From NCBI GenBank assembly GCA_016184005.1, contig JACPDL010000004.1, forward strand, positions 14,107 through 78,106: a stretch of DNA of 64,000 nucleotides. Direction: 5' to 3'. The stretch comes from Candidatus Aenigmatarchaeota archaeon (GTDB lineage: Archaea; Aenigmatarchaeota; Aenigmatarchaeia; GW2011-AR5). This document shows, piece after piece, positions 606 through 56,636 of this stretch. Within the stretch, counting starts at the first letter, position 1. Every line of letters begins with the position of its first letter. Made by a program: the position numbers and the translations under genes. Under the pieces are notes generated by a model. The model saw only the letters and a program-made list of their open reading frames with translations. It ran no database searches and was not told where the DNA came from.

Positions 606-1083
606 CTAGGTTCTGATGCCGGGGAAGAGATATTCTAAGCGTTTCTTTTCCAGGGTTTTCTTTTTGAAAGAAAAGCCTTTTCGAACTCTTGAAGGCACTA
701 AGCCACAGGATTTCTATCACAGCAGCAGCCTTACTGCGTTCTAGACTTAAGCTGTGTCTTAAGTAAGGCCCGATTATTTCTTTCGCAATAACCGTCCTGC
801 CCCTTTGGCCATTCCCTAGCTCTTTTGCTTAAACTGGTTTTTCGCAAGCGTTTTTGCGCGCTTTTCCCGCTTTTTTCAGTTTTTTTCAGTTTTTTTCCGC
901 AAGCGCTTTTTGCGAAGCAAAAAGGGCTTCTCGGGAACCCCGGCCCTGCAATTATAGTCATGCAAAGAAAGAATCGATATATACTTTCTTTGCTGACTAT
1001 ATGTGAAGCAAATAAATTATATCCTGTTTATTTATTTGCTTCACTATAATCTTGGAAAGAAGGAATTAAAAGTAGTTGTGCGT

Positions 1084-1446
1084 TCAAGCATCCAGTATTT
1101 TCTCGAATTCCCTGAATTTGTCCAGATGTCTCTTCAAGGCATTTTGTCGAAGGGACTCAGGCAGCCTATCCAGCATATGCGGGGTTCTGTCAAGAACTCC
1201 CCCGCCGGTTGATACAACATATACAATCTCGGCTCCTTCAGGACTCTCAGTTATTTGCAAGAGATCAGCAGGCTCCTTTGGAACTTCGATGACGCTTATT
1301 GCTCCTTTGTAAGATGTTAACCATTTTGCGAAAGTATAGCTTTTATTGCAGTGCCTTACGACTCTGTGCTCCTGATAAGCTTCTTCATCCGCGTGCCTTA
1401 CTCTGCATGATCTTCCAACGGACAATTCAATCGTCATAAGAATCAC
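1084..1446 (-). CDS. hypothetical protein, translationally coupled downstream of rpoD
   Basis: 120-aa ORF overlapping the rpoD stop by 4 nt; no recognisable motif. Confidence 0.4.
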   Translation of the reverse strand: MILMTIELSVGRSCRVRHADEEAYQEHRVVRHCNKSYTFAKWLTSYKGAISVIEVPKEPADLLQITESPEGAEIVYVVSTGGGVLDRTPHMLDRLPESLRQNALKRHLDKFREFEKILDA

Positions 1447-3430: not shown

Positions 3431-3939
3431 CTCTTTGCTTCTTCTTTTTCATTTTTTTCCTTTTCCATGACAGCTGTTTTTATCTTCGGGCTGAGGGAAA
3501 CGCTTCCTTCTTCCTCTTGCTTGATTATGTAACTTGGCCACCTGATTCTTCTTCTGTCCACCAGTATGTGGCCGTGAACAATGAGCTGTCTTGCCTGCCT
3601 TGGGCTGTGTGCAAGGCCTTTTTTGTGCACGATTGTCTGCAATCTTCTTGAAAGCAGATCGTTGAGGTTTGCCTCAAGTATATCATCAAGGGTCTGGCAT
3701 TTTATCCCGAGTTTATTTAATTTTTCTATGAGGTCCTTTTCCTTCTTCTTGTCATGATGCGCTTGCAGGTCTCTGGCGCGCCCGCGGAAATCACGCAGCA
3801 CCCCTTCTGCCCTCCATATTTCTTTTTTTCTGCGTAAGCCATAATCCTGTTCGAGCTTTTTCTCTCTTTCTATCCTGTCCTTGTCATAAGGCTTCTGCGG
3901 CCGCGAATATTTCTTTTCCTGTCTTTTCGGGTGTCCCAT
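3427..3939 (-). CDS. rps4: ribosomal protein S4
   Basis: S4-like C-terminal domain ([28 protein letters not shown]); overlaps the rps11 start by 4 nt. Confidence 0.85.
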
Positions 3940-4251
3940 GATTAATCACTAGATATATGCGTATACTTCTGCTTTTTCGGTCGCTGATAAAACCTCGTGC
4001 CTGTAAAGGGCTCTTATTGATTCCGCATAATTGTGCCGGCCAGGCGAATCAGGCTGCGTGGATTTATATCCCGCCACCGTGTCCCTGTTTCTTGCTGAAA
4101 AATGTCGTTTTGCATCAGCAAGACATCTCTTTCCGCCCGTCCTGAAAGCTTCCTGAATAGCACCCCTGAAAAATATCTTGGGAGAAGCTTCGCTTCTCCG
4201 AGATTCCAAAAAGCTGCGCTTTTTGAGAATCTTGTGTGCCTGAAGCGTCAT

Positions 4252-44691: not shown

Positions 44692-45204
44692 AAGGATACT
44701 TGATGCAGGAAATTTAAATATAGCCCGGCCAGATAAGGTGGGAAAAAGAAGCGGTGACCTGCCATAGCCCGTCTTCTGTAAGCCCTCTTTTGCTTCCTGA
44801 GAAGTTTTCTTTTCCCAGGGGTTTTCTTTTGCAAAAAGAAAAGGCCTTGCAACATTTGTCTGTGCGTTTGAAACTTACACCCGCGTGTAGCAGGCCGTTT
44901 CAACTGGTCGCATGTTTTACCACGCACGGCATATCACAGCGTTTGCTCTATGCCCCAGTATCGTTTCTGTTCCTGCCAATGACTTCTCAGCCATGCAATT
45001 TGCTTGCCACGCCTTTTCACAAGGGGCAATGACACAGCGAAGCCGCGTCAGTCCTTCTCATGAGAGTGGACAGAGCTTCCTCAATCAGAACCTATGGTTC
45101 CGATACCTCCCTTTAGGAAGGATTTCAGATAAAGTTCCGACCGGTGGTTGCTTGACAGGTCACCGAGGATATAATGCTAGAGAGGGTTAATAAAGATTTG
45201 GGAT

Positions 45205-45859: not shown

Positions 45860-46058
45860 CATACCACACCACCAAATGACCAGCTAGTAAATTCTCAAAA
45901 AGCGAAGCTTTTTGGAATCTCGGAAAGCTATGCTTTCCCGAGATAGCTTAATCTAATATCCATTTTAGGATTCCCACAGAAATCCCACACCCTTAACACC
46001 GTTATTATGGTTTTGCGGGTTTATATTGATTTCTCTGATCAAGAGGCTAGATGTTAAC

Positions 46059-46244
46059 CTACGTCAAATGCCTCTTCTCTTGCCTTTTGACATGAAGCGC
46101 ATAACCACTACTTGGCTTGAATTCGACTATTGCGCCTTCTTTGTAACAGGCAACATCTCCTGCTCTCAGCCTGTAATACCTGCCGTCAGAAGCTGCAACT
46201 GTGCCATCTCGCGTAACTTTGCCTGTAAGATTGTGTTTTATCAT
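46059..46244 (-). CDS. hypothetical small beta-rich protein
   Basis: 61-aa ORF; no family recognised. Confidence 0.25.
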   Translation of the reverse strand: MIKHNLTGKVTRDGTVAASDGRYYRLRAGDVACYKEGAIVEFKPSSGYALHVKRQEKRHLT

Positions 46245-46379
46245 AGGGATTACACTTTGGACACTATTAAACTACTACAATGTGATGCCTCACCACCCTA
46301 AAGGGTGGTGCGTCCGCTTTCGTTTCGCATACCGTCCATCTACACCTTGAAGGGTGAGCGTTGCGAAACGAAAGTAAAC

Positions 46380-46515
46380 AATATATACGATTTTCTCTTG
46401 GGAGAAGCGAAGCTTCTCCGAGATCTTCGGAGAAACTCCGTCTCTCCGAGATTCCGAAATCCTTTGGATTTCGAGAATTCCAAAAAGCTATGCTTTTTGA
46501 GAATTTAGCAGGTTA
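46380..46515. repeat. HPR hairpin-module cluster
   Basis: TTGGGAGAAGCGAAGCTTCTCCGAG, CCGAAATCCTTTGGATTTCGAG and CCAAAAAGCTATGCTTTTTGAG, the same modules as at 38100-38290. Confidence 0.55.
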
Positions 46516-46539
46516 TATATTCTTTAACCTACTTTATGC

Positions 46540-46735
46540 AGAAATCATATCTTCTTAATATACCACCGACTAAAGTCGGTGGTTTGTGAGAAGATGTGAT
46601 CCCAGAGACATTGTGTTTCATCTGCTGTCTAATCCTAAATCAAGCAAAGCTTGATTTGAATTTCTCAAAGGATTTTGAAGAAATCCTTTGCAGAAAAGAC
46701 AGCAGTTTTCAATGTCTCTGAGGATAATTAGAGTA
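46540..46735. repeat. CSL-family element carrying inserted HPR modules, abutting the 23S 3' end
   Basis: ACCGACTAAAGTCGGTGG, then outer stem CCCAGAGACATTG...CAATGTCTCTGAGGATAA enclosing HPR hairpins. The outer stem covaries relative to the other copies. Confidence 0.55.
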
Positions 46736-47136
46736 AAGCAGAATTCACAGGTCCGGAGGCCAAGAATATATCTTGGATCGCAAAGCCGCAACTGTGCGAT
46801 TTTAAAGGCTAGCATTGGCTTAGGAGAGCATGAGCTGAACATCTCGCTTGCGCTTGATGCGTACACCCTGCTTCCATATCTGGTCGTCTTCCAGCGCCGA
46901 TTGCCTCTTTTCGAGAGTGGCTTGGGGCTTAGATGCCTTCAGCCCTTATCCACATGGGGCGTGGCTACCCGGCGATGCCTTGTCAGACAACCGGTACACT
47001 AGAGGCCCCGAAAGGATGTTCCTTTCGTACTTATCCTTCCTTTCTCTCAGGCAAAAACACCTCCAGCAGATATAGACCAAACTGGCTATGGTGCCAATTC
47101 TGCAAGATAATTAAAGCTAAGTTCAACTGAACTAAG

Positions 47137-47793
47137 CTAAAGCATAACATCAGAACTCACAGAAACGGTCACACCGTTCTGAATTGCTGAAGAATCAGGA
47201 ATCCATTTTTTTATCAGAATATCAAATTTTCTCTGTTTTTCTGGGTGTGGAATTTGTATTGTTTTATAGAATTTCAATACATCTTCCTTTCTACCTATTC
47301 TTAAGATAAACTCGGTTTTGTTTTTTTCTAGAAAACATGTTGATTCTATATCCATTTCTCTTAGAACGTCTTTAAACCACATTATCATTTCTTGGTTTTT
47401 TGACCAGATTTCTACTTTTGCTCTCATTCTATCATGAGTAACGCTTCCATCGCCAGCTATCCATCCACACAAATAATCTTTTCGATTTTTTATGGAAAAT
47501 AGTTGAGGTGGTTTAATTGTTTTTGATTTTGCGCCCGCTGGAATGTTATATTGCTCCACAAGCGTTTTCCATAAATCTCGTGAAGCTACGCGAACTACAT
47601 ACTTACCATCACTAAAACCTGATGAAATAAAAGAAATCTTTGGTGTCTTTTTTGTATTTGCAATAAACAGAGGAATTACAATTCTTTCTAGAAATTCTAA
47701 ATCTTTGTTTATTACATAAACTGAATAGCCACCTAATTTTTGTATGTGACCGTCACTTCCAACTATTCCAGCTAGCAAATCTAAATCAGACAT
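47137..47793 (-). CDS. LAGLIDADG homing endonuclease (double-motif) encoded in a 23S rRNA intron (intron about 47118-47835)
   Basis: LLAGIVGSDGHI and LCGWIAGDGSV motifs about 100 aa apart. The flanking exons join as ...AGCTGGGCAAGAATCAGG / CCAGTTTGGTC, corresponding to the E. coli 23S region around position 2593. Confidence 0.8.
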   Translation of the reverse strand: MSDLDLLAGIVGSDGHIQKLGGYSVYVINKDLEFLERIVIPLFIANTKKTPKISFISSGFSDGKYVVRVASRDLWKTLVEQYNIPAGAKSKTIKPPQLFSIKNRKDYLCGWIAGDGSVTHDRMRAKVEIWSKNQEMIMWFKDVLREMDIESTCFLEKNKTEFILRIGRKEDVLKFYKTIQIPHPEKQRKFDILIKKWIPDSSAIQNGVTVSVSSDVML

Positions 47794-49039
47794 GTCTAAC
47801 TTTTATTAGTTTGTTTTATACTGATTTCTATATTGCGTTAGATAGTATATAGATATCCTGATTCTTGCCCAGCTAACGTGCCCTTTTAATCTGTGAACTC
47901 CAGCACCCTTGGCTGCTGCTGCACAGCCAGGAGAGGACGAGCCGACAGCGACGCCGCAACGCACGGGGTCGATTTGTTCTCCGCATTGCATGGAATAAGC
48001 GTAGTAACGCCAATTTCATTGCTAGGTAAATCAACACTTATCCTGATACTAACGCCAATTTTCATTGTAAGCTTTTTGCTTAACTCTATCGGTTGAGGGT
48101 ATCAGGATTCGCCTAATCAGCCTGAGCACATCTGAGCTCTTCGTTTGGCTAAAACTGCTAAGGCAAAGATAGCTCTGAATAAGTTTTGATTAAGCTAACT
48201 TTGACTTCCAATTAAAGAGTCAGACTTTCAGGCCTGCGGATAAGAACTCTCACCCGCCACGACACCATTATCCCCGAGGTAGCTTTTCTCATGTCACAGT
48301 CAGCCATCTAGGCCAAACTGCGTATCGCTAACTCACGCTTTCACGGTTGGACACCATTATGTTAGGAGTCCAATCAATGCAGCTTTTGCGTTTGCACTCT
48401 ACCCGCGATTTCTGACCGCGGTGAGCTGCACTTTGAGGGCCTTTGATATAACCTCGAGCATCGCAAGGGATTATACATGCTATGCTTGATACAATTTCAA
48501 AGGCGTACCGCCCCAGTCAAACTATCCACCTGCTGCTGTCACGCTTTCGCGTTAAGCAGTAGAGTCAAAAAAGGGTAGTGTTACATTGTCGCCGAAGCTC
48601 CTACCTACACTATACAATCCCAACTCAACCACAACAACAAGCTATAGTAAAGCTCTACGGGGTCTACTCTTCCCACTGGAGGTCTCTGGCCTAATCACCA
48701 GAACAATAGTTTCGCCGAGTTCCAGTTCGGGACAGCACCCATCTGGTTAATCTATCATGCAGGCCAACTGTTACAGCCTTTTCCTCATAATATGCTTTCT
48801 TTTTCCCAAGGGTTTCTCTTTGCGAAAGAAAAAGGCTTATTTAATTGGCAAGGGATTTAACGAATCCTCTAACATGACGTTTTTAGTCGTGATAGGATTT
48901 TACGCTACCTTAAGACCCTCAGAGTTAGGGCCGGCCTACAGCGGGGCTTCGACCGGTTGAAACCAGTTTTAACACACCGCTAGTGGCCACGACTCGCTGG
49001 CTATACTAAGCCTTTCGGCTTTGCAGCCAGCTATGTTTG

Positions 49040-49591
49040 TTAACTCCGAAGAATAGGTTTCCTTATCTTGATTCCACGGACGCTTTTCCTGAAAATTTCT
49101 ATAGATTTCGCTCTGTATATCTGAACTCCAAATATTTTGCCGAATCTATAGATTTTGCAGGTCAAACCTTGCTTGCTAAGGAACTCTGAAATTGCTTCCA
49201 GAAGCTTGAGGTGGCTGTTATAGATTACAATTCTGTCTGTAACAGTCCCTTCTGCGTCAAAAAATCCTGAAATGAAATCCCATTTATCTTTATCCTGTAG
49301 ATTATCAAAAAACTCTACAGGATTTTCTCTTAGGATCTCGAATTCTTTGTACAAATTTTTGGAATAAACTAATGATCTAGTCTTATCCAAAAATCCGTAC
49401 TGATGAACTCGTAATTCCATTTCTCTGAATTTTTTAGACGCTTCTTCGGCAATTTCCTTATTTCTGTTGCACTGATCTATCCATACTGCGAACGCACGAT
49501 TCTTTCCGTGATTCATCGTACCGTCGCCGTACAGCAGACCTGCAAGGTAAGCATCCATCAAGAATTTACATGCTGCGTGGCACATAAACAT
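49040..49591 (-). CDS. LAGLIDADG homing endonuclease (double-motif) encoded in a second 23S rRNA intron (intron about 49030-49615)
   Basis: LAGLLYGDGT and ISGFFDAEGTV motifs. The ORF begins right after the exon sequence GGACTGTTTAACAAAC (the conserved GACUGUUUAAUAAAAACA region). Confidence 0.8.
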   Translation of the reverse strand: MFMCHAACKFLMDAYLAGLLYGDGTMNHGKNRAFAVWIDQCNRNKEIAEEASKKFREMELRVHQYGFLDKTRSLVYSKNLYKEFEILRENPVEFFDNLQDKDKWDFISGFFDAEGTVTDRIVIYNSHLKLLEAISEFLSKQGLTCKIYRFGKIFGVQIYRAKSIEIFRKSVRGIKIRKPILRS

Positions 49592-52500
49592 TTCTGTTTT
49601 CTACTCTTCAGGTTTGTTAAACAGTCCGATGGATCTTGTCACTGCGACCTGCCCATCACTGAGCAGGCACGTCATATACCTAAGATACGACGCTAATTTG
49701 CCGAGTTCCCTAAACTGGATTATCTCGAACACCTTCGCCTTCTCGGCGAGGGGCACCTGTTTCCCGAATCCTTTCCGTAAACGCTTTTCGCGTGAGTCGG
49801 AAAGGGTTTGTCGGTTCTGAGTACGAGCGTTCAATGTCATAACATACCAGGATTTTCAAGGGCTCCAGGAATTATCCAAAGCCGCCATACGGCAGCCTTA
49901 TCGCGCCTTCCCAAAGTTCTCGTCATGATGACACTCCCTTTGGTTGAGCGTTTAAACATAGCGACAACCATGTTCGGACTATCCCGAAGCGTCTCCGGTA
50001 TGGTAAACATAGAGCGGTTCGGGAATATTAACCCGATCTCCATTCGCGCACTTCTTCTTAAGGGTGCACTTAGGCTCGACTTACCCCCAGCAGATAAACT
50101 TTACTGGGGAACCCTTGCCCCTTAGGTGGACGAGATTCTCACTCGTCTGAATTGCTACTCCCGGCAGGATCTTCATTGCTGCTAGGTCCACACCCGCTTA
50201 CGCGGACGCTTCTGCCCTCGCAGCACGCCTCCCTACCACATGCAGTTTGCTGCATGTCATTTGTATCGGCAAGGGACTTAGCCCCGTCCATTTTCCCCGC
50301 CCTGAAGCTCGGTGGGTCCGCTATATCGCGAGAAGCCCCTTCTCTTGTAAGAGAAAGGCCCTTGGGTTCAAAGAGAACTTTTACTCGCTTCGCTCGAATA
50401 TTATATTTTGTAATAATGCGAACACAGCGAGCCCATTAGTTTTCTTTTCCCAAGGTCTTTTCTTTTCTGCAGAAGACGAACGTCTTCTGCAGAAATCCAA
50501 GAAGCTTTTGCTTCTTAGGATTTGCAAAAAGAAAAGCCTTCTTTACGCGTTGTTTGAAGGGTGGCTGCTTCTAAGCCTACCTTCCCACTGTCTGAGCTTC
50601 AAGACCAAGTTCGATACACTTAGTCCCTATTTAGGGGCCTTAACAAATGTCTCGGTTGTTTCCGTCTCGGATGCCAAACTTACTCCAGGCACCCTCACTC
50701 CCGCCTGCGCAACAGCAGATTTGGAGTTTGACAAGGTGGTTGGACCTCTCGGCCCTTAGCCATCTAATCAGTGCTCTACCCTGCTGTCAGCCATAGGCGA
50801 GGCTGCACTTAGATGCATTTCGGGAGGAACCAGCTATCACCAGACTCGATTGGCTTTTCACCCCTAACCCCAGGTCACCCGACAAGTTTGGACTATGTTC
50901 GGTATCAGGCCTCCATTTCGCTTTCGCGAAACTTCACCTTGCCCAGGGCTAGATCGTCTGGTTTCGGGTCTCAATCCCGTGACTAATCGCGCGTTAACAC
51001 GACGAACCTTGTTGCCTGCGTTCTATCGCTTTCGCTTCGCATTTCTGCTCGCCACGAGAATGAACTCCCTGCCCCGTTTTTCGAAACGGACGACGGAATC
51101 ATCTGCTCTTGCGAGCAGCGTTACCCGTCTAACTATAGGTACCTGGTTTCAGGCTCTTTTTATTGGGTGTTACCCCTTCTTTTCAGCTTTCCGTCACCGT
51201 ACTACTGCGCTATCGGTTTCAGGCAGTATTTAGGATTGGATCTAGATGAGACCCGTATTCCTGCTCCTAATTCAAGAAACAGTACTCTGGATACTCGCCA
51301 TTCACCTTCTCAACTTCGGATACGCGGCTGTCACGCTTTGGCGCGCTGCTTATGCTGAAACTTTTCAGAAGTTTTTGATCAAACTTTTTCTAAAAAGTTT
51401 ATCCAGCAGACTTCTCCTCGTTGAATGAGGCAAGACACGAGTCCAAACACCACATTGCTTTGTCTTTTCAGCAAAGCTTCGGTTTGTCCTTTGCTGCTTT
51501 CACTCGCCGTTACTAACAGCATCGCAATTGCTTTCTTTTCCTGGCCGTAATAAGATGTTTCAATTCTGGCCGTTCGCCCTCCCTTGCGGGAGTATACAGG
51601 ATGTCCCATTCGGCAATTCTCGGTTCGAAGACTGCATGCGTCTCGCCGAGACTTTTGGCAGCTTACCACCGCCTTCGTCGCCACCTGAACCAAGCCATCC
51701 ACCAAATACCATGGGAGCTAGCTATCTTTACCTCCGGACCTGTGACCGCTTCATATGTTTTTGAAAAGGAAAACGCTAAAAGCGTATTCCATTTGCTCTG
51801 CGCTTAACCCAGCAAATTTCTTCGTGGGCCGCAATCATACTAGATGATTATGAAATTACCAGATATTTTTGAACGATCAAAGCTTCATTCGACATTATTC
51901 ACATCTTGTTAACACTGTTCAGAATTAGACAGAGAGAAAGCATAGATACGTTCTTGATTTTGCCATATGCCATCTACCTGCTGCAAACTTCGTCTTTTGC
52001 CACAAAGACCAAAGCCACTCTGAACAGCTTTCGGTAGTTCAACTTTATTGTAGAAATGCAGGATTTCTGACCCTGCGTAACCAGAAGTAATGTATAAAAA
52101 TATAAAAAGGTTTGGGTGGGCTCAATAAACAAGTTCTGGATGATCTTTGCGCAAAAAACATCTTATAGCTGGAACAAGTTGCATAACTACTGCGTCATCT
52201 TGTTTACGAGCAAAGACATCGTAATGAAATTCTCCATGAGTTACTGTACGAAGATATGTTAATTCTGGGTTTAACGCACCCTTGCGCTCATTTTGAGAAT
52301 GAACGAATTCTTCTGCCGTGAATGGTCACTAATTAATCTATTGTCCAGAACCCCTTTATTAATTTTCAAAGTATGAAGAAACACGCAAATTTAAAATCAG
52401 AGTTCATACAATTAAGATTCAAGCGGGGGTTCCCTAGCCTGGTCAACAAATCCCTTTCTTTAAAGAAAGGTCTTTGTATGTCCCAAAGAACATTTGGGAT

Positions 52501-52753
52501 ATTAATTTGACTATTGGGGCAAGGTTGAGGGCCTTGTGACTTAGTGTCTACGAGAGTTCAAAGAAGCCCTTTTTCCTAATGAAATGACGTACCATAGGTA
52601 CGTCTTGGTGTTTGAAAAAGCGCTTGCGGAAAAAGAATTAAGAAGAATGAGAAAGGGTTTGGAAATTCTCTCCCCCCGCATTTTTAATCCAAATGTTTGG
52701 TACGAAGTCAGGCTTAAATTAGTTTTTAGCTTTAATTAAAATTAAAGAGCGGG

Positions 52754-53071
52754 TTGATCCCTATGGAAAAGAAAAACAAAAATTTCAGTTTCTATTGGGA
52801 AGAAAATCATAAACAGGGCAAAACATCTGAGATAAACATAGAGCTTCCCGGATTCAACAAAAATGAAATTAATGTTTCTATAGAAAACGGTTTCATCAAT
52901 ATATCTGCAGAAAAGAAAAGCCATGAACAGGAAAAGGGAAAAAATTTCTATAGAGAAGAATTCTTTCAGCAAGCCCTCAGACGTTCTATATCATTGCCAG
53001 AAGGAGCAAACCCTAAAGGCCTTGAAATCAAAATAGGAAATGGCTCTGTAAACATTAGAAGAAAAGGCTGA
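52754..53071 (+). CDS. small Hsp20/alpha-crystallin-domain protein
   Basis: IELPGFNKNEINVSIENGFINISAEKK ... RSISLPEGANPKGLEIKIGNGSVNI follows the ACD beta-sandwich pattern. Confidence 0.55.
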   Translation: MIPMEKKNKNFSFYWEENHKQGKTSEINIELPGFNKNEINVSIENGFINISAEKKSHEQEKGKNFYREEFFQQALRRSISLPEGANPKGLEIKIGNGSVNIRRKG

Positions 53072-53102
53072 GATATATTCAAATACTTCTTTTTGCAATT
53101 AC

Positions 53103-53468
53103 ATGTTAATGGGTGGACAAAGAGAAAAAAGATTCTGGTACTTTACTGAATTGAAAGATACAGCAGAGTTGCGAGAATGCAGAAAAAAGTATTCTGCAGA
53201 AAGGCTGTTAAATCCGGACTTAACATTTCCACAATTTGCAGTTCAATATATGGGAAGACCAGTGCCAACTATAGCTGATGTGTTTACTCAATTGAAAAAG
53301 AAAGGTTATGATCCTCAAACGCCCCCAGTAAAAGATGGATCTGGTAAAGTGATTGCACAAGATATGTCGTCTGAATTATACCAAGCTGTTTCTTTCTGGG
53401 TCAGCAAACCAATTTCAGAAGAAGACTCTAAAGCAGTAACTGATCTCGGTTTTGAACTTTCCCAATAG
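53103..53468 (+). CDS. hypothetical protein
   Basis: 121-aa ORF between Hsp20 and the 16S rRNA; no family recognised. Confidence 0.35.
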   Translation: MLMGGQREKRFWYFTELKDTAELRECRKKYSAERLLNPDLTFPQFAVQYMGRPVPTIADVFTQLKKKGYDPQTPPVKDGSGKVIAQDMSSELYQAVSFWVSKPISEEDSKAVTDLGFELSQ

Positions 53469-53791
53469 GGCCCCTTATTAACCTTTATATAACTTTCTCC
53501 GGTATTATAACTGTTTTTGATGTGAATTTTCATTTACATCATTGGGCGGTCAGGTTTGGCAAAACTTGTTTTCTAAACTTGGGTATGCCCATCTATCTCA
53601 ATATCATATTGATGTCTGCATCAAGGCGCGGTTTCAGATAAGGCTGTTTGCCATGCGTGAAGAAATCATTTTTCCAGATGCAGACAAGCGTGATTGCGTG
53701 ATGTTGTCATTATGCAAGATAGAAGCACGAAGAGACGCAACTCTATCATGAATAGAGGGACAGTAAATATATTAGTAGTGCTAACCTAACA

Positions 53792-56406
<2,615 letters not shown>

Positions 56407-56636
56407 TAAATTTTTTATATGCAAGGTCATGATAGGCGCCAAATCGCAGAAGCTGCGGCTTCTGTGTTTTTCCAGAAACCTTTTTCTGAGAAAATCTTCG
56501 TGCTTCTGTCAAAACTTGTCAAGGACCACCGTCTGAAGACGGTGGCATGCTGAAATTGGTGAATCCTTGAGCATCCCGCATTCCACCTTGAACCACTGTT
56601 TGAAAACAGTGGAATGCAAGATTTCCAAGAAGGTAT

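Follow-up and report, generated by a model that had tools for sequence, protein, structure and literature searches.

Ten probable bulge-helix-bulge introns, two of them encoding LAGLIDADG endonucleases, in the 23S rRNA gene of an Aenigmarchaeota genome

Why is the 23S ribosomal RNA (rRNA) gene of a DPANN archaeon nearly 5 kb long? The question is raised by 64,000 nucleotides (nt) of contig JACPDL010000004.1, here called the window, from a metagenome-assembled genome (MAG) of Candidatus Aenigmarchaeota. We predict that this gene carries ten archaeal bulge-helix-bulge (BHB) introns that are spliced by proteins, and we put the probability of this reading at about 0.85. Two of the introns contain open reading frames (ORF1 and ORF2) for LAGLIDADG homing endonucleases. 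An initial annotation of the window, made from the letters alone, had proposed a 23S gene of about 5 kb interrupted by introns, in a lineage like DPANN or the candidate phyla radiation (CPR); the source is indeed a DPANN MAG, and the results below support this intron interpretation in its essentials.

The archaeal large-subunit (LSU) rRNA model (Rfam RF02540, cmscan) matches the minus strand of the window and the archaeal small-subunit rRNA model the plus strand. The LSU model has 2987 positions and the gene has 4925 nt. Where an uninterrupted rRNA would have aligned continuously, scans of sub-ranges aligned the conserved cores with posteriors of ~0.98-0.99 and left large blocks unaligned. In 46000..48500, where model positions 2356-2987 align down to 46802, these blocks measure 776 (with ORF1), 270, and 45 nt; in 48200..49900 and 49850..51040, they measure 576 (with ORF2), 125, 51, and 221 nt. 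The 776-nt block consists of intron 8A, a 14-nt micro-exon, and intron 9B, and the 125-nt block of introns 5a and 5b. Together the ten insertions amount to 2084 nt, or 42% of the gene, and the predicted mature rRNA is ~2841 nt long.

The 5′ end of the gene lies at 51726 and its true 3′ end at 46802, where model position 2987 aligns. A whole-window scan had given 47816..51726 (model 1-2987) with one unaligned block of 52 nt. Its 3′ end was forced ~1 kb early, leaving ORF1 outside, because the covariance model could not place the micro-exon, and the sub-range scans overturned it. The ends of the gene are flanked by the strands of a perfect 14-bp processing stem; a canonical BHB was sought in this stem and none was recognised, only the helix. 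The bounds first proposed for the gene (46736..51715) are close to ours, and their extra ~65 nt at the low end hold the 3′ strand of the stem.

Intron junctions were set by blastn and pairwise alignment against 23S genes of related MAGs without the given insertion, with no structure model. Fourteen 23S loci from relatives were used: L001-L006 come from contigs encoding ORF1 homologues and L007-L014 from one exact-pattern scan of reference genomes (labelled Aenigmatarchaeota in six of eight, and uncultured archaeon for L008-L010, from two assemblies). Sites are given in an Escherichia coli numbering of our own, anchored on what we take to be residues A1067/A1095, m6A1618, psi1911-1917, m5U1939, m5C1962, G2251-2253, A2451, A2503-U2506, G2583-U2585, and A2602. 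Eight introns have no ORF; six of these are 43-82 nt long and the other two 219 and 268 nt. Short insertions had already been noticed, including those in the GGUAGCGUAA..CCUUGCC core; they are present, and their number had been underestimated. Junctions and BHB motifs could be mapped for all ten (Table 1).

In archaeal BHB introns, a 4-bp helix lies between two 3-nt bulges and exon nucleotides form one strand of the helix (PMC4090602). All ten junction pairs show this arrangement in exact register. In eight of them an inner helix of 5 bp or more backs a central helix with all four pairs; introns 3 and 5b have three of four central pairs. When 5′ and 3′ junctions of different introns were combined, none of the 90 mismatched pairs reached four central pairs with an inner helix of at least 5 bp, even with shifts of up to 3 nt either way. 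The inner helix is strong throughout (6-13 paired positions in all ten, one mismatch allowed), and minimum-free-energy folding recovers the central helix in six of the ten introns. Cutting after the second bulge nucleotide gives a product of the same length as in intron-less relatives, with 0-2 substitutions, for nine of the ten. A first BHB scan, in mirror-image geometry (bulge 5′ of the central-helix strand), had returned mostly native rRNA helices and was replaced by the correct geometry, as confirmed by PMC4090602.

Intron 1 is the top hit of the gene-wide BHB scan; its central helix is among those recovered by folding, and L001 lacks the intron at exactly these bounds. Removal of intron 3 is predicted to give CCGAC^ACAGGUG, as in the intron-less L011. 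Intron 4 is absent in L011 and L012, and intron 5a in L001, L010, and L013. The predicted product at intron 5b, GCCAAUUAAAU^GUUGGCC, has the length of the intron-less L013 sequence, GCCAACUAAAUAUUGGCC. Intron 6 is missing from L014, which reads GCCTTTGAAAATGTATCAAAGGC. L004 lacks intron 7 with an identical exon length, and other relatives hold 84-310 nt at this site. Intron 8A is absent in L008, L009, L010, L011, L013, and L014, and L007 and L012 have a homologous intron whose position differs by 1 nt. The predicted product at intron 9B, GGUGUG^AGCCAGUUUGG, equals that of intron-less relatives. For intron 2, which lies in the loop of helix 44 (H44), no intron-less relative was found; every relative examined has an insertion there, of 49-164 nt at identical junctions. 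The predicted product ACGCGUA^AUAGCGG restores the conserved universal H44 loop, GCGUAAUAGC. Extra hairpins are present in the window copy of intron 2, one of them a 32-nt palindrome (50464..50495), together with a segment like the family-1 mini-introns discussed below, which suggests a composite intron with nested insertions.

Homologous introns provide a further comparison. Those at the intron 8A site keep GCUG[GGN]...CAGC[AAU] and have three unrelated inner helices, AAGAAUCAGGA/UCCUGAUUCUU in the window, AGGGUUCUGGAAGUC/GACUUCCAGAUCCCU in L004, and GAAGCCGAGAAG/CUUCUUGGUUUU in L007; L001 and L004 both show covariation in this helix. At the intron 4 site, UAAC/UAAU[AAA]...GUUA[ANA] is kept by the homologues from Woesearchaeota, Micrarchaeota, and ‘Terraquivivens’, and four phyla have four unrelated inner helices, and in L016 the central helix changes from UAAC/GUUA to UAAU/GUUA with a G-U pair. 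The inner helices thus clearly covary, and the 4-bp helix and the bulges stay fixed.

The splice sites of introns 8A and 9B are only 14 nt apart within the catalytic centre of the ribosome. The covariance model left E. coli positions 2584-2601, 18 nt of the peptidyl-transferase centre (PTC), unaligned, and this initially had the appearance of a deletion. A pattern search of the window for the universal PTC sequence of helix 93 (H93), AGAACGTCGTGAGACAG, and its variants found nothing, because this lineage reads GAACGGUGUGAGCC and the sequence is split by intron 9B. Intron-less relatives read GCTGGGTTCAGAACGGTGTGAGCCAGTTTGGTC; the window has TTCAGAACGGTGTG at 47183..47170, inside the 3′ end of ORF1, then 82 nt, then AGCCAGTTTGG. 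The segment is thus present as a micro-exon, and the deletion was rejected. L004 has the same arrangement of intron 8A, micro-exon, and intron 9B. One of the LAGLIDADG ORFs had been placed at E. coli ~2593-2600, a classic homing site. This is about right for the ORF-less intron 9B and wrong for the ORF1 intron, which interrupts G2583/U2584, ~10 nt upstream of the ‘classic’ 2593.

We propose that, in the primary transcript, the four exon nucleotides upstream of each 5′ splice site would pair with four nucleotides near the 3′ end of the intron. The resulting 4-bp helix would have a 3-nt bulge on either side and the intron-internal helix behind it, and the tRNA-splicing endonuclease (EndA) would cut each bulge after its second nucleotide. 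The exons would then be joined, and the introns probably circularised, by an RtcB-type ligase, giving a continuous rRNA of ~2.84 kb in which the GTPase-associated centre and the PTC are intact. At the DNA level, introns 4 and 8A may spread into intron-less alleles by means of the endonucleases they encode. The eight ORF-less introns have no endonuclease, and some belong to sequence families that appear to have moved between sites.

Several points weigh against this reading. Seven introns have an outer, exon-exon helix of only 0-2 bp (introns 4, 5b, and 6 have 4, 5, and 8 bp), which makes most of the BHB motifs relaxed ones. Introns 3 and 5b fall one short of four central pairs, and intron 3 has an alternative register with all four, CCGA[CAA]...UCGG[GAA]; its product would be 2 nt longer than the relatives’ CCGACACAGGUG, and we kept the three-pair register. 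Where repeats at a junction left a freedom of a few nucleotides, the register that fits a BHB was chosen, so the motif statistics are not fully independent, and the control with 3-nt shifts is a partial remedy. We infer splicing, ligation, and circular introns from sequence, and likewise the enzymes involved, the endonuclease activity, and the mechanism of transposition.

Could the insertions instead be self-splicing group I (or group II) introns, as in some DPANN rRNA genes and in CPR bacteria? Group I introns occur at conserved domain IV/V positions of DPANN rRNA genes, often with LAGLIDADG ORFs and sometimes in the same genes as BHB introns, and position LSU/1923 of an Aenigmarchaeota MAG has one (Nawrocki, Jones & Eddy 2018, PMC6125680). 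The insertions described here also cluster in domains IV and V. However, none of the ten matches a group I model: Rfam group I and group II models found nothing at E<=5 in 46700..56500 and nothing at E<=1 in 46000..48500. The two ORF-bearing introns are almost devoid of non-coding sequence (intron 4 has ~23 nt outside its 552-nt ORF), and a group I core (P3-P9, which takes some 200 nt or more of structured RNA outside coding sequence) would have no room in intron 4 or in the eight introns of 43-268 nt. All ten insertions have BHB motifs in the correct register, with covariation. We give this alternative hardly any weight.

It is also conceivable that the insertions are not ligated out, either because they are kept as expansion segments or because they are cut out without ligation, so that the 23S rRNA ends up in pieces as it does with the intervening sequences of bacteria. 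DPANN and CPR rRNAs are known to be unusual, and the H44 insertion, found in every relative examined, behaves as a lineage-specific expansion would. Yet several insertions split universally conserved single-stranded functional loops (H44 GUAAUA, PTC G2583/U2584, the H93 loop, and the 16S 530 loop), where their retention would be incompatible with function, and the insertions come and go among near-identical relatives. The junctions have the structure of a splicing endonuclease substrate, not of an RNase III substrate, and ten unligated excisions would leave eleven fragments, one of them of 14 nt. Retention or fragmentation is therefore improbable. Mis-assembly or decay into a pseudogene has only a very slim chance of being correct: the source is a MAG, and the 18 nt of the PTC that the covariance model did not place resembled a deletion at first, but they are present as the micro-exon, homologous introns occupy the same sites in independent ENA, JGI, Logan, and NCBI assemblies, the exons are 95-100% identical to those of L014, and the predicted mature sequence is uninterrupted, with cores aligned at the posteriors given above. 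BHB introns spliced by proteins remain our preferred reading.

ORF1 and ORF2 were both found by the initial annotation, with correct coordinates, as full-length double-motif LAGLIDADG ORFs within conserved 23S cores; both are on the minus strand, a point that annotation had not given. Each encodes a single chain with two LAGLIDADG-type motifs that include an acidic residue, and each passes the Pfam LAGLIDADG_3 cut-off of 22.5 bits (ORF1 with 54.4 bits, E 1.5e-14; ORF2 with 42.8 bits, E 6e-11). Both ORFs are intact, and we predict that they encode monomeric double-motif LAGLIDADG homing endonucleases. Similarity searches matched both to archaeal intron endonucleases. The nearest solved structures to ORF1 are PDB 2DCH (I-Tsp061I, E 6.4e-8) and I-DmoI (~1e-3), and the nearest to ORF2 is I-DmoI (E 1.6e-4, residues 13-157), which is weak but consistent support for a distant relationship to these enzymes. 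ORF1 is 100% identical to NCBI HYU56_05040, a hypothetical protein of a Candidatus Aenigmarchaeota MAG. We found 23 homologues of ORF1 and 90 of ORF2, nearly all unannotated metagenomic proteins. Compared with L001, ORF1 has lost 1 nt and with it the usual stop (ATC TCC TGA becomes ATT CCT GAT), and only for this reason do its last ~20 codons extend across the micro-exon and into intron 9B; in our view this C-terminal tail is incidental.

The ORF2 intron lies in domain IV, as had been proposed, in the stretch GACUGUUUAACAAA followed by AACAUAG. Wherever the DNA context was checked, homologues of ORF1 and ORF2 sit at the same 23S sites. ORF2 homologues in L015, L016, and L017 (Woesearchaeota, ‘Terraquivivens tikiterensis’, and Micrarchaeota) are at the same site, GACUGUUUAAYAA^A; the bulges are conserved there and the inner helices covary. 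The intron-endonuclease pair thus spans DPANN and non-DPANN archaea. Homing is supported indirectly, by homologues at the same rRNA site across phyla and by intron-plus and intron-minus alleles among close relatives. The predicted intron-less cleavage targets of the two endonucleases are GTTAGCTGGG^TTCAGAACGGTGTGAGCC and GACTGTTTAACAA^AAACATAGC.

The intron content of close relatives varies. L014, with its nearly identical exons, is without introns 6, 8A, and 9B. It has a 602-nt intron (811..1411) that is absent from the window, with a perfect BHB, GGGG[AUA]GAUUUAUAAG...CUUGUAAAUC CCCU[AUA], and a 186-amino acid (aa) LAGLIDADG ORF. This intron is inserted at E. coli U2449/A2450, which we take to be the classic omega/I-SceI site. 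Such differences between near-identical relatives indicate recent intron gain or loss. L001 (1..7300) and L002 contain a related 23S gene with four LAGLIDADG ORFs, and in L001 the PTC site has two abutting introns, one after G2583 and one of 35 nt after U2584 (CUGG[GUU]...CCAG[AUU]).

The ORF-less introns include sequence families that occur at more than one site. Self-BLAST of the 23S gene against the window detected one palindrome only; the families were revealed by BLAST across loci and by an nhmmer profile. Family 1 is a hairpin mini-intron of ~60-70 nt, AAGCCUUUUUCUUU...CCCUUGGGAAAAAGAAA...AAAAGGCU (also written AAGCCUUUUUCUUU..AAAGAGAAACCCUUGGGAAAAAGAAA..AAAAGGCU), with nhmmer E-values of 1e-15 to 1e-8. 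The window, L010, and L014 have it at E. coli 1955. L001, L011, and L013 have it at the H44 site (~1095), where it also occurs inside intron 2 of the window, and L001 has a copy at ~1615. The 16S gene of the window also has a copy. Weaker yet recognisable copies are in the T-loop of a tRNA-like gene and 5′ of ACAGAAG in an RNase P-like RNA. These hairpins are probably the ‘HPR hairpins’ of the initial annotation. Family 2 includes intron 3 (E. coli ~1615) and the L007 intron at the H44 site (~1095; L007 4124..4171), which share 94% identity over 48 nt and differ mainly in the tetranucleotide that pairs with the exon (CGGG vs CGCG) and in the first intron nucleotides.

These similarities are evidence that ORF-less introns may have moved between sites. 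A comparable case is summarised in PMC4090602: as far as that summary goes, work from 2010 described near-identical short BHB introns at different positions of different tRNAs of Thermoproteales, implying transposition. Near-identical short BHB introns at different positions of different host RNAs are common to both cases. In the summary’s account the Thermoproteales case concerns tRNA genes only, whereas here the hosts are different 23S sites, 16S, a tRNA-like gene, and an RNase P-like RNA, and the 4-nt exon-pairing segment differs to match each new site. We see an even chance that families of ORF-less BHB mini-introns are actively transposing in Aenigmarchaeota and colonise any structured RNA gene (several 23S sites, 16S, the tRNA-like gene, and possibly RNase P RNA), with retargeting amounting to a change of about four exon-pairing nucleotides near the 3′ end of the intron. 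If so, ‘tRNA intron transposition’ would be extended to rRNA and across RNA classes, and the origin of at least 16 rRNA-gene introns in a reduced genome would be explained. In the part of the literature covered, neither BHB rRNA introns of Aenigmarchaeota nor mini-intron families in rRNA were found to be described.

The element type is already known, namely archaeal BHB rRNA introns, some of which have LAGLIDADG homing endonucleases. Insertion sequences in CPR bacterial rRNA genes were reportedly described by Brown et al. 2015. The present case resembles the CPR insertions (PMC11270868) in that the rRNA genes of ultra-small, host-dependent lineages are heavily interrupted, LAGLIDADG proteins are the ones most often encoded, and the insertions cluster around the PTC. 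Unlike the CPR insertions, which are bacterial, largely group I-like, and mostly associated with single-domain LAGLIDADG proteins (Tsurumaki et al. 2024, PMC11270868), those of the window are in an archaeal host, are of BHB type, and encode double-motif enzymes.

Among archaea, the Desulfurococcus mobilis 23S intron (I-DmoI) and the crenarchaeal rRNA introns of Pyrobaculum, Thermoproteus, and Aeropyrum (I-Tsp061I, PDB 2DCH) are likewise bounded by BHB motifs and encode monomeric double-motif LAGLIDADG proteins, and processing by the tRNA-splicing endonuclease is predicted to be common to D. mobilis-type introns and those of the window. I-DmoI-type introns belong to hyperthermophilic crenarchaeotes, whereas the host here is a mesophilic groundwater DPANN archaeon with ten introns in one 23S gene, compared with one to a few. 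The insertion sites (E. coli ~1784 and 2583) differ as well, the sequence match to I-DmoI is very weak (E 1e-3 to 2e-4), and the outer helices are mostly weak. Thermoproteales have been described as holding the most numerous rRNA introns in Archaea (Jay & Inskeep 2015, PMC4496867). Their 16S and 23S genes share with the window multiple BHB introns per gene, some with a LAGLIDADG ORF and many without, conserved intron cores at the junctions, and presence/absence variation among close relatives; unlike them, the window represents a DPANN genome and has at least 16 introns over two rRNA genes and a 14-nt micro-exon.

What goes beyond the routine is the load of ten 23S and at least 16 rRNA introns, the micro-exon in the catalytic centre, and the apparent movement of ORF-less introns between sites. 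With ~42% of the 23S gene being intron, this would be an unusually heavy load on protein-dependent BHB splicing, and it would mean that an organism of reduced genome relies heavily on EndA and RtcB to make its ribosomes. The families common to several sites provide a concrete system for the question of how ORF-less archaeal introns move, which has been open since the Thermoproteales tRNA observations. There are also consequences for annotation. Standard rRNA callers mis-set the ends of both rRNA genes (cmscan ended the 23S gene ~1 kb early and the 16S gene ~0.9 kb early) and missed the PTC micro-exon. Universal primer and probe sites are interrupted, including the 16S 515-530 region, so such lineages would be under-counted and their rRNAs mis-annotated in MAGs.

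Table 1. Features of the window and family-1 copies in relatives. Bulges of BHB motifs are in square brackets, with the splice site after the second bulge nucleotide; ^ marks a junction; site numbers are those of E. coli unless otherwise stated.
Feature	Position	Strand	Description
23S (LSU) rRNA gene, including ten introns	46802..51726	(-)	4925 nt; cmscan RF02540
23S processing stem, 5′ strand	51731..51744	(-)	CACAGGUCCGGAGG; perfect 14-bp complement of 46746..46759
23S processing stem, 3′ strand	46746..46759	(-)	CCUCCGGACCUGUG; pairs with 51731..51744
Intron 1	51352..51401	(-)	50 nt; domain I, Rfam model position ~340; BHB GCUG[GAU]AAACUUUUUAGAA...UUCUGAAAAGUUU CAGC[AUA]
Intron 2	50325..50543	(-)	219 nt; H44 loop of GTPase-associated centre, ~A1095/A1096; BHB CGCG[UAA]AGAAG...CUUCU CGCG[AUA]
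Intron 3	49761..49809	(-)	49 nt; ~C1615/A1616; BHB ACCG[ACA]AACCCUUUCCG...CGGAAAGGAUU CGGG[AAA], central helix 3/4; family 2
Intron 4	49039..49613	(-)	575 nt; domain IV, GACUGUUUAACAA^AAACAUAGC, ~1784/1785; BHB UAAC[AAA]CCUGAAGAGUAG...CUAUUCUUCGG(A)GUUA[ACA]; with ORF2
Intron 5a	48857..48900	(-)	44 nt; 1937/1938, in GGUAGCGUA^AUCCCUUGCC; BHB AGCG[UAA]AAUCCU...AGGAUU CGUU[AAA]
Intron 5b	48769..48838	(-)	70 nt; 1955/1956; BHB UUAA[AUA]AGCCUUUUUCUU...GAGGAAAAGGCU GUAA[CAG], central helix 3/4; family 1
Intron 6	48448..48490	(-)	43 nt; hairpin loop 3′ of P-loop, ~2273/2274; full hBHBh′ GCCUUUGA AAUU[GUA]UC...GA GGUU[AUA]UCAAAGGC
Intron 7	47974..48241	(-)	268 nt, no ORF; 2477/2478; BHB GUUC[UUA]UCCGCA...UGCGGA GAAC[AAA]
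Intron 8A	47184..47867	(-)	684 nt; PTC, after G2583; BHB GCUG[GGC]AAGAAUCAGGA...UCCUGAUUCUU CAGC[AAU]; with ORF1
Micro-exon	47170..47183	(-)	14 nt, UUCAGAACGGUGUG; 2584-2597 (U2584/U2585 and 5′ half of H93); from comparison with intron-less relatives’ GCTGGGTTCAGAACGGTGTGAGCCAGTTTGG
Intron 9B	47088..47169	(-)	82 nt, ORF-less; H93 loop, after G2597; BHB GGUG[UGA]CCGUUUCUG...CAGAAUUGG CACC[AUA]
ORF1, predicted double-motif LAGLIDADG homing endonuclease	47137..47793	(-)	218 aa; LLAGIVGSDG / WIAGDGSV; in intron 8A
ORF2, predicted double-motif LAGLIDADG homing endonuclease	49040..49591	(-)	183 aa; YLAGLLYGDG / FISGFFDAEG; in intron 4
Family-1 copies, window	48769..48838, 50436..50467, 54215..54283, 44781..44845, 639..674
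Family-1 copies, relatives	L001 2890..2963, 3888..3943; L010 602..666; L011 3845..3889; L013 45..107; L014 300..340, 3947..3994
16S rRNA gene	53792..~56407	(+)	~2.6 kb; at least six insertions with BHB-type junctions
16S insertions	~54215..54283, 54331..54418, ~54500..54640, ~54736..54810, 55441..56033, 56077..56247	(+)
ORF in 16S intron	55444..56022	(+)	192 aa; fills 593-nt intron
tRNA-like gene with several long insertions	~617..944	(-)	acceptor GCCGGGG/CCCCGGC+A
Probable RNase P RNA	44753..45164	(-)	P1 GGUGACCUG/CAGGUCACC; CR-I-like GAGGAAGCUCUGUCC; CR-V-like ACAGAAGACGGGCUAU

SMC, geranylgeranyl reductase, and NiFe hydrogenase, all encoded by host genes of the window, are archaeal. The 16S and 23S genes do not form a 16S-23S operon; they are divergently transcribed from a spacer of ~2 kb (51727..53791). 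The bounds given for the 16S gene by a global cmscan search, 53792..55534, were rejected as ending too early. With its insertions, the rRNA-gene introns of the window number at least 16. The insertion at 54331..54418 lies inside the 530 loop, and its removal is predicted to give GCCGCGGUA^AUAACC. The ORF that fills the longest of the listed 16S insertions has no LAGLIDADG, Pfam, or PHROG family, with only sub-threshold matches to MarR-type helix-turn-helix domains; its product may be a degenerate intron-encoded protein or one of a kind not yet recognised.

ARAGORN reported no tRNA in the window. In the tRNA-like gene, removal of 631..679 restores a perfect T arm, AAGAG-UUCGAAU-CUCUU, and the acceptor strand. 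When BHB candidates were removed from this locus by brute force and the products given to ARAGORN, every listed tRNA call needed the removal of the family-1 element, and the best-scoring solution was unconvincing. The RNase P RNA is a probable assignment that Rfam does not report at its gathering threshold. The BHB assignment of its family-1 element is ambiguous, since a U-rich/A-rich helix allows slippage. The element lies directly 5′ of ACAGAAG, next to CR-V, and L014 has the same arrangement.

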